Source of the DNA: Thermodesulfobacteriota bacterium
Lineage (GTDB): Bacteria > Desulfobacterota_D > UBA1144 > Nemesobacterales > Nemesobacteraceae
Assembly: GCA_965209225.1 (NCBI GenBank)
Contig: OZ242379.1
Coordinates: forward strand, 934,762 to 998,761
Direction: 5' to 3'
Length of the DNA stretch: 64,000 nucleotides
Shown here: one piece after another, positions 1,599 to 1,720 of the stretch
How positions within the stretch are numbered: the stretch's first letter is position 1
Layout: the number at the start of each line of letters is the position of its first letter
Made by a program: the position numbers and the translations under genes
Notes under the pieces: model-generated
Databases searched by the model: none
Told to the model about the DNA's origin: nothing
Seen by the model: only the letters and a program-made list of their open reading frames with translations

Positions 1599-1600
1599 GT

Positions 1601-1720
1601 GACTTATACGTCTATATTAAAGGCTGTGTTTAATATAACTGACTTATACGTCTATATTAAAGGCTGTGTTTAATATAACTGACTTATACGTCTATATTAA
1701 AGGCTGTGTTTAATATAAAT
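1601..1720. repeat. three tandem 40-bp direct repeats immediately upstream of the Fic start codon (promoter region)
   Basis: Unit gacttatacgtctatattaaaggctgtgtttaatataact repeated at 1601-1640, 1641-1680 and 1681-1720 (last copy ends aat); each copy carries a TAATAT -10-like hexamer on the minus strand. Confidence 0.95.

Follow-up and report, generated by a model that had tools for sequence, protein, structure and literature searches.

The window, i.e. the whole 64-kb stretch of DNA analysed here, carries on its minus strand the gene for a class II Fic protein, which sits between ispH and a 98-aa ORF, and a tandem repeat that directly precedes the start codon of this gene (Table 1). The original prediction was that a 40-bp repeat is triplicated beside the Fic gene. 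This was confirmed by repeat searches, in which Tandem Repeats Finder reported a period of 40 at positions 1600-1718 (3.0 copies; 100% matches; score 238), and by an independent assembly which also holds three copies (see below). The repeat units are 1600-1639, 1640-1679, and 1680-1719, and the sole deviation among them is the final plus-strand base of the third unit. The array had been said to end 2 nt before the ATG; the adjacency holds, and the distance is 1 nt (the single base C at 1599, between the end of the array at 1600 on the coding strand and the ATG at 1598-1596), the discrepancy being a matter of how the units are phased. A feature overlooked in that prediction is a perfect 9-bp inverted repeat, TATATTAAA-N7-TTTAATATA, in every 40-bp unit, which consists of a 27-bp dyad and a 13-bp linker with no sequence constraint. 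The TATATTAAA-N7-TTTAATATA pattern was not found outside the array within the 64-kb window.

Table 1. Positions of the features at the Fic locus, numbered from the first letter of the window
Feature	Position	Strand	Basis or description
SoFic-type class II Fic protein, 393 aa	417..1598	-	Fic_N, Fic domain with SxxxEG and HPFLDGNGRVGR, C-terminal winged helix
C-terminal region with winged helix, proposed reader of the dyads	444..611	-	recognition helix 347-359 after G-T-T; wing T-G-R-A-R-N-R-R-F
98-aa ORF, 37 nt downstream of Fic	83..379	-	conserved only in the immediate clade (79-86% aa)
Array of three 40-bp units	1600..1719	-	repeat search; orthologous three-unit arrays in L001, L045, L081-L086
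Dyad 1, distal	1692..1718; core 1693-1717; centre 1705 (-107 from ATG)	.	inverted repeat; PWM, 33.7 bits
Dyad 2	1652..1678; core 1653-1677; centre 1665 (-67)	.	inverted repeat; PWM
Dyad 3, proximal	1612..1638; core 1613-1637; centre 1625 (-27)	.	inverted repeat; PWM
Junction promoter-like site	1672..1700	-	-35-like TTAATA in right arm of dyad 1, 17 bp, -10-like TATATT in left arm of dyad 2
Second junction promoter-like site	1632..1660	-	-35-like element from dyad 2 (right arm), -10-like element from dyad 3 (left arm)

The assignment of the gene product to class II of the Fic proteins, already made in the original prediction, was borne out by the inhibitory motif S80-S-Q-I-E84-G85, which lies N-terminal to H219-P-F-L-D-G-N-G-R-V-G-R230 (HPFLDGNGRVGR, residues 219-230), a sequence that conforms to the catalytic motif HxFx(D/E)GNGRxxR. 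Both motifs are invariant among the homologues (24 homologues for the catalytic motif). Pfam searches detected Fic_N (2.3e-28) and Fic (1e-18), with HTH_13 at the C-terminus below the cutoff (23.6 vs 26.1 bits), and the PADLOC SoFic profile (PDLC03963) was matched in full length (E = 1.9e-115; residues 20-384 aligned to positions 5-358 of the 361 in the profile). The nearest solved relatives by sequence were 7cb8 (Mycobacterium marinum Fic, 7e-34) and SoFic (~1e-32, phmmer); the deposition 3eqx of the latter is titled "Fic domain containing transcriptional regulator". The AlphaFold2 model (pLDDT 78.5, pTM 0.81) has a C-terminal strand-helix-helix-wing at 333-376 with pLDDT above 90, and its full-length superposition on SoFic (3eqx/3zcn) and 7cb8 gave TM values of 0.76-0.83. 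In 80 homologues (for the sample, see below), G-T-T-Y-x-A-A-N-x-L-V (the turn and the recognition helix) and T-G-x-x-R-N-R-R-F (the wing) are nearly invariant, which parallels the conserved core of the dyad. An exact-protein look-up with the window Fic returned no record.

The 98-aa ORF has an acidic, TD-rich C-terminus and gave no Pfam or PADLOC match. For E. coli Sofic (EcSofic), a 47-aa downstream antitoxin, AS1, has been reported, and the 98-aa product is a possible lineage-specific partner of Fic; as a family-wide partner it was rejected, since an ORF confined to the immediate clade cannot explain a family-wide element. Among the homologous loci, the Fic stop codon overlaps (ATGA) or closely precedes a downstream ORF in L011, L022, L031, L036, L042, L046, L048, L052, L055, L066, L071, and L078. 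By eye, the N-termini of these ORFs resemble those of type I restriction subunits (HsdR/HsdS-like) or of DUF262-type proteins, which would place the loci in a defence island or an R-M operon; in the window, by contrast, the neighbour is ispH.

The window has a second tandem array at 58108-58383 (81 bp x 3.4; 97% identity). Its unit comprises the first ~33 nt of an AAA_14/DUF4143 ATPase gene (58353-59501, plus strand) together with a promoter-like TTGACT-N17-TATAAAAT, i.e. a "promoter plus gene start" segment has been about triplicated. This array, which adjoins a 457-aa ORF without Pfam match (56564-57937, minus strand), has no dyad and is unrelated to the Fic motif.

Conservation and phasing of the dyad array

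Comparison with orthologous loci, which had been recommended as a check, revealed three-unit arrays in the relatives. In a Dadabacteria MAG (L085; GCA_028824925.1, an independent NCBI assembly), whose partial Fic protein has 97% aa identity to the window Fic, three perfect units are present as in the window, with SNPs in the flanks. Three diverged units were found at the matching position in eight more assemblies, from relatives with 84-95% aa identity: in four independent assemblies with a 95%-identical protein (L081-L084), three 40-bp units end 1 base before the ATG, downstream of ispH, and the arrangement is the same in L086, L045, and L001 (84-89% identity with BLASTP; 87-89% for L001 and L045 with tblastn). 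The unit count was three in 10/10 assemblies of the window clade. The suggestion that the copy number is variable is not supported inside this clade; distant lineages do differ, from 1 to ~10 units. L002 (75% aa identity) has another genomic context and still has three 40-bp units with the shared core. Note that the exact 25-mer of the window dyad had no match in the species-representative genomes, in which the representatives of the clade have diverged units.

The presence of three diverged units at the same place in all close relatives shows that the array is older than the clade and under selection. In the diverged relatives, the identity is 65-90% among the units of one locus and 85-90% among orthologous units of different loci; within the arrays of the window and of L085, it is 98-100%. 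The window unit is nearest by identity to unit 2 of L001, L045, and L086 (82-88%), but not to that of L081. The perfect identity of the window copies shows that the array was homogenised recently in the window lineage, so that the copy number may vary at the read level; in this event, three ancient diverged units would have been turned into one unit type, either by gene conversion or by unequal exchange.

For the family-wide analysis, 80 homologous loci were sampled (proteins 63-89% identical to the window Fic; 81 loci including the window) from Thermodesulfobacteriota, Planctomycetota, several classes of Pseudomonadota, Chloroflexota, Verrucomicrobiota, Gemmatimonadota, Acidobacteriota, Cyanobacteriota, and others. 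An iterated matrix on the upstream regions converged on a 27-bp dyad with the consensus CCATATTAAAGGC-(A/T)-GCCTTTAATATGG. Each of the 81 loci has at least one dyad no further than 260 bp from the Fic start (4 loci have a single dyad, 46 have two, 26 have three, and 5 have between four and seven), and the centre-to-centre spacing was 40 bp in 103 of 119 cases, 41 bp in 12, and 39 bp in 2. The dyad density was 200 in 21.7 kb upstream vs 20 in 470 kb elsewhere (~210-fold enrichment), and several of the 20 matches elsewhere are continuations of the same arrays. The logo over the full 40-bp period has ~29 conserved positions and ~11 unconstrained linker positions; the two halves of the dyad are conserved symmetrically, as is its GGC-w-GCC centre, with T-10 and A+10 as the best-conserved positions. 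With the family PWM, each of the three window dyads scored 33.7 bits, and the runner-up site in the 64 kb scored 15.7; with three identical 40-mers of this score, a chance origin of the repeat is excluded.

The genes beside the array differ among the 81 loci, and the Fic gene alone travels with it. In GC-rich hosts, the arms are less promoter-like, and the dyad and the 40-bp period are kept. In 26 of the 81 loci (e.g. L010, L012, L016, and L053), the centre of the last dyad lies at -10, its right-arm ATATGG contains the Fic start codon, and its left-arm AAAGG, 11 nt upstream, is SD-like; in these loci the putative operator and the translation initiation region coincide. In L017 (Dehalococcoidia), ~ten units lie upstream of Fic (L017:2580-2960) and three lie directly after the stop codon (L017:4180-4300), with strongly degenerate left arms; an array on either side of a gene is not accounted for by simple promoter occlusion. 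As regards the proposal of a reiterated operator array, it is strongly supported by the comparison, in which inverted-repeat sites at a strict 40-bp phasing occupy the gene's own promoter region (-27, -67, and -107 in the window) in many phyla, and it also fits the C-terminal winged helix, since relatives that have it bind their own promoters. The repeat is a functional architecture, and neither an artefact nor a simple slippage tract.

Relatives of the window Fic with 27-59% identity were found on 371 plasmids, and a graded sample was taken (L087-L092). The homologue on a Microvirga megaplasmid (L087; 59%) has four units with a 41-bp period and an altered half-site, TTATTATCG, and those on three Rhizobiales plasmids (L088-90; ~46%) have TTAAWTAA half-sites in a less regular layout; in Microvirga and Rhizobiales, the recognition helix and the half-site are both changed. 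On the Citrobacter freundii IncU KPC plasmid p112298-KPC (L091; NZ_KP987215.1 around 66070), where Fic is 39% identical, there are three TTATTAAAGG-type 24-bp dyads with a 31-bp period, of which the last one spans AAGGAG and the ATG; this plasmid offers a tractable, cultured system for the operator model. The Fic gene of L091 is directly downstream of a relaxase gene. No array was seen at the archaeal plasmid homologue (L092).

Promoter-like elements and alternative explanations

Each copy had been predicted to contain a promoter pair (ttaaac and taatat). Both elements are present, but they are 8 nt apart as against the 16-18 nt that sigma-70 needs, and the within-unit promoter was rejected for this spacing. 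In a consensus scan, promoter-like pairs were found to straddle adjoining units (TTAATA-N17-TATATT; two per strand vs 0.5 expected), since the 40-bp period places positions +5..+10 of one dyad exactly 17 bp from positions -12..-7 of the following one. When a sigma-70-like site was defined by at least 9 of 12 matches, 44 sites were obtained on the Fic strand of the 81 loci, with the -10 element starting at -12 from a dyad centre in 29 of the 44, whereas the mirrored position on the opposite strand had only 9. L002 has a perfect TTGACA, a 17-bp spacer, and a TATATT that is the left arm of its unit 1. The promoter elements seem to be embedded in the arms of the putative operator, and a bound protein would therefore occlude them. 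Upstream of unit 1 of the window, no convincing -35 element was seen by eye, and the window Fic gene has no recognisable SD. Since no terminator was found in the interval between ispH and the array, read-through transcription from ispH could also occur.

An excess of sigma-70-like sites in a conserved and strand-biased register could also be expected if the array were a reiterated promoter, of which the unit copy number sets or switches expression as a contingency locus without a dedicated repressor, and both the range of 1 to ~10 copies among distant lineages and the perfect window copies, as the product of a recent recombination event, would suit such a locus. We consider this explanation improbable: the conservation has two-fold symmetry and peaks at positions (T-10, A+10, and the GGC-w-GCC centre) that do not belong to a promoter, the copy number is fixed at three across the ten clade assemblies, GC-rich hosts keep the dyad and the 40-bp period while the arms lose their promoter likeness, and the -35 and -10 elements proposed within the unit lie too close together. 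A role of the palindromes at the RNA level, as 5'-UTR hairpins governing translation or stability, is suggested by the many relatives in which the last hairpin would pair the SD-like AAAGG with the AUG (the 26 loci described above) and by the last dyad of L091, which covers AAGGAG and the ATG. Over 208 units, however, the arm complementarity was 60%, which equals the expectation from column frequencies alone, and the mutual information between paired arm positions was close to shuffled values. Among the arm mismatches, the 238 G:T pairs were far outnumbered by 664 other non-Watson-Crick pairs and were comparable to A:C (186), and compensatory changes that keep RNA base pairs were not found in the dyad arms of these units. 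In addition, the palindromic centre would leave a 1-nt loop, the central base is found in either orientation, an Rfam search of window positions 1400-2000 gave no match, and the window ATG is outside the dyad. An RNA element is thus very improbable, and the dyad is predicted to be a degenerate two-fold-symmetric protein-binding site in double-stranded DNA rather than a conserved RNA helix. That one 40-mer was inflated to three by the assembly is hardly credible: mis-assembly does yield perfect tandem copies, and short reads hardly fix the copy number of a perfect 120-bp array, but the identical three copies recur between flanks with SNPs in the independent assembly L085, and the diverged, hence unambiguous, units of the eight other assemblies stand at the same position.

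As to the protein that reads the dyads, it might be a factor other than Fic, such as a host nucleoid protein, a global regulator, or a regulator encoded elsewhere; the AT-rich dyads could attract nucleoid proteins, and the covariation between the recognition helix and the half-site is weak. On a tree from the non-wHTH part of the protein, residue 346 (N-cap position of the recognition helix) underwent two independent T/S-to-A changes within the 81 loci (L048; L023 and L052), and with both changes half-site position 4 changed from A to C/T (14/16 half-sites, vs 84% A overall). This co-change, with two events, is suggestive; L071 deviates in part from the pattern. A simple code relating helix to half-site was not obtained, as L091 changes the helix and keeps the half-site. 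Against another factor, the element accompanies the Fic gene across unrelated phyla in which no further neighbour is conserved, the 64-kb window has no additional strong site and such sites are rare in the flanks of the 80 loci, and relatives that share this wHTH bind the promoters of their own genes. With unrelated neighbours in many phyla and no other gene conserved beside the array, the reader should be encoded by the Fic gene itself, and there is little probability that the sites serve another factor.

Proposed autoregulation and comparison with known systems

We propose, with a probability of about 0.7, that the repeat serves as a tripartite, phased operator array through which the SoFic-type Fic AMP-transferase regulates itself negatively; most likely, the DNA-binding tail of Fic represses the promoter of its own gene. 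Binding to the promoter and repression have been shown by others for relatives, and by analogy we infer the same for the window protein. Fic dimers, formed through the N-terminal helix as in SoFic, would bind one per dyad via their two C-terminal winged helices. The distance from T-10 to A+10 is 20 bp, or ~68 Å, which is close to the separation of the DNA-binding helices of CccR (see below). The 40-bp period would fix the relative position of neighbouring dimers, which implies contacts between them and cooperative binding. The promoter would be built into the array, with the right arm of one dyad supplying the -35-like TTAATA and the next left arm supplying the -10-like TATATT at a 17-bp spacer, and occupancy of the dyads would occlude it, and in many relatives the SD and ATG as well. 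The outcome would be a potentially toxic enzyme held at a low, buffered level.

An unlikely, though possible, further role is that of an assembly platform, on which Fic dimers at 40-bp intervals would form a DNA-bound oligomer, with DNA occupancy coupled to the state of the enzyme. This idea derives from the dependence of SoFic AMPylation on dimerisation and from the induction of dimerisation and activity of CbFic2 by DNA, and a storage or scaffold role would fit the arrays of up to ~ten units and the two-sided arrays of L017 better than simple repression does. If so, the upstream DNA would hold or prime the toxin as a stoichiometric sensor or buffer, and phage infection or a similar disturbance of DNA or transcription would release or activate it.

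SoFic-type Fic is a widespread single-gene, anti-phage, toxin-like system whose control is poorly understood; winged-helix autoregulation was shown for one distant member (CccR) and suggested for SoFic. For a large family branch that spans many phyla, a candidate conserved operator is now supplied (a 27-bp dyad, 40-bp phasing, 1 to ~10 copies), which gives a handle on how the expression or activity of these enzymes is released during infection. While the principle that Fic-HTH proteins regulate themselves via their own promoter is already known, the identity of the operator, the strict 40-bp phasing, the variable multiplicity, the frequent overlap with the start codon, and the cross-phylum conservation appear to be new; a search of the literature (full text, mainly open-access journals) found no phased dyad array upstream of SoFic-type genes.

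The SoFic of Shewanella oneidensis (SO_4266 / mloA), whose AMPylation depends on dimerisation, is alike to the window Fic in having an N-terminal dimerisation helix, a class II Fic domain, and a wHTH at the C-terminus, although the two are only ~25% identical. Specific binding to the 100 bp that lie upstream of its own start codon was shown for the dimeric but not for the monomeric form of SoFic (bioRxiv 10.64898/2026.07.09.737422). In the promoter sequences given in Table S2 of this preprint, we found ATGTCGA half-sites at -107, -68, and -28 (39 and 40 bp apart), and the SoFic-bound fragment F1 has one perfect dyad. The half-site differs between the SoFic promoter (ATGTCGAT) and the window family (ATATTAAAGG), as does the dyad, which is 19 bp in the former, with one of three sites a full dyad, and 27 bp in the latter. 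The family PWM gave no match in the S. oneidensis SoFic promoter, and the link to SoFic is therefore one of spacing and dyad architecture and not of sequence; the phasing extends to the experimentally studied SoFic, and the sequence motif does not. Positions -254..-188 of the SoFic promoter, inside fragment F3, have two 27-bp dyads, TGTATAGATA-N7-TATCTATACA and a variant of it, centred at -241 and -201 and thus exactly 40 bp apart, in the geometry of the family with another sequence; F3 bound SoFic less well than F1 (bioRxiv 10.64898/2026.07.09.737422).

In Yersinia pseudotuberculosis, the class II Fic protein CccR (PDB 7XUX), which has an HTH at its C-terminus, is a repressor of its own promoter; it binds to inverted repeats overlapping or near the -35 and -10 elements, and dimerisation is needed; its footprint is 46 nt, and its DNA-binding helices are ~70 Å apart (PMC9755527). 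The footprint of ~46 nt resembles the 40-bp unit of the window, but the CccR operator is a single pair of 10-bp half-sites with 26 bp between them, whereas the window has an array of compact dyads. CccR is distant from the window Fic (E = 1e-12 over the Fic domain only; TM ~0.55) and is a T6SS effector, a role that nothing in the window suggests. In CbFic2 of Coxiella burnetii (PDB 8CIL), a class II Fic protein with a wHTH, binding to DNA brings about dimerisation and enhances (de)AMPylation, and DNA of 40 bp has a greater effect than DNA of 20 bp (PMC10628234). CbFic2, which is also distant from the window Fic (TM ~0.56), bound random DNA with no defined operator and is a eukaryote-directed effector.

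Rows of dyads that overlap a promoter are found in the OR and OL operators of phage lambda and in the multi-site operators of type II toxin-antitoxin systems (e.g. phd/doc, hipBA), on which dimers bind cooperatively, resulting in a sharp and buffered autoregulation of a harmful product; of these, Doc is a toxin with the Fido fold. The period of those operators is ~21-24 bp, in contrast to 40 bp with 1 to ~10 copies in the window family, and, unlike in the lambda and toxin-antitoxin systems, a single polypeptide here combines the DNA-binding module with the toxin-like enzyme.
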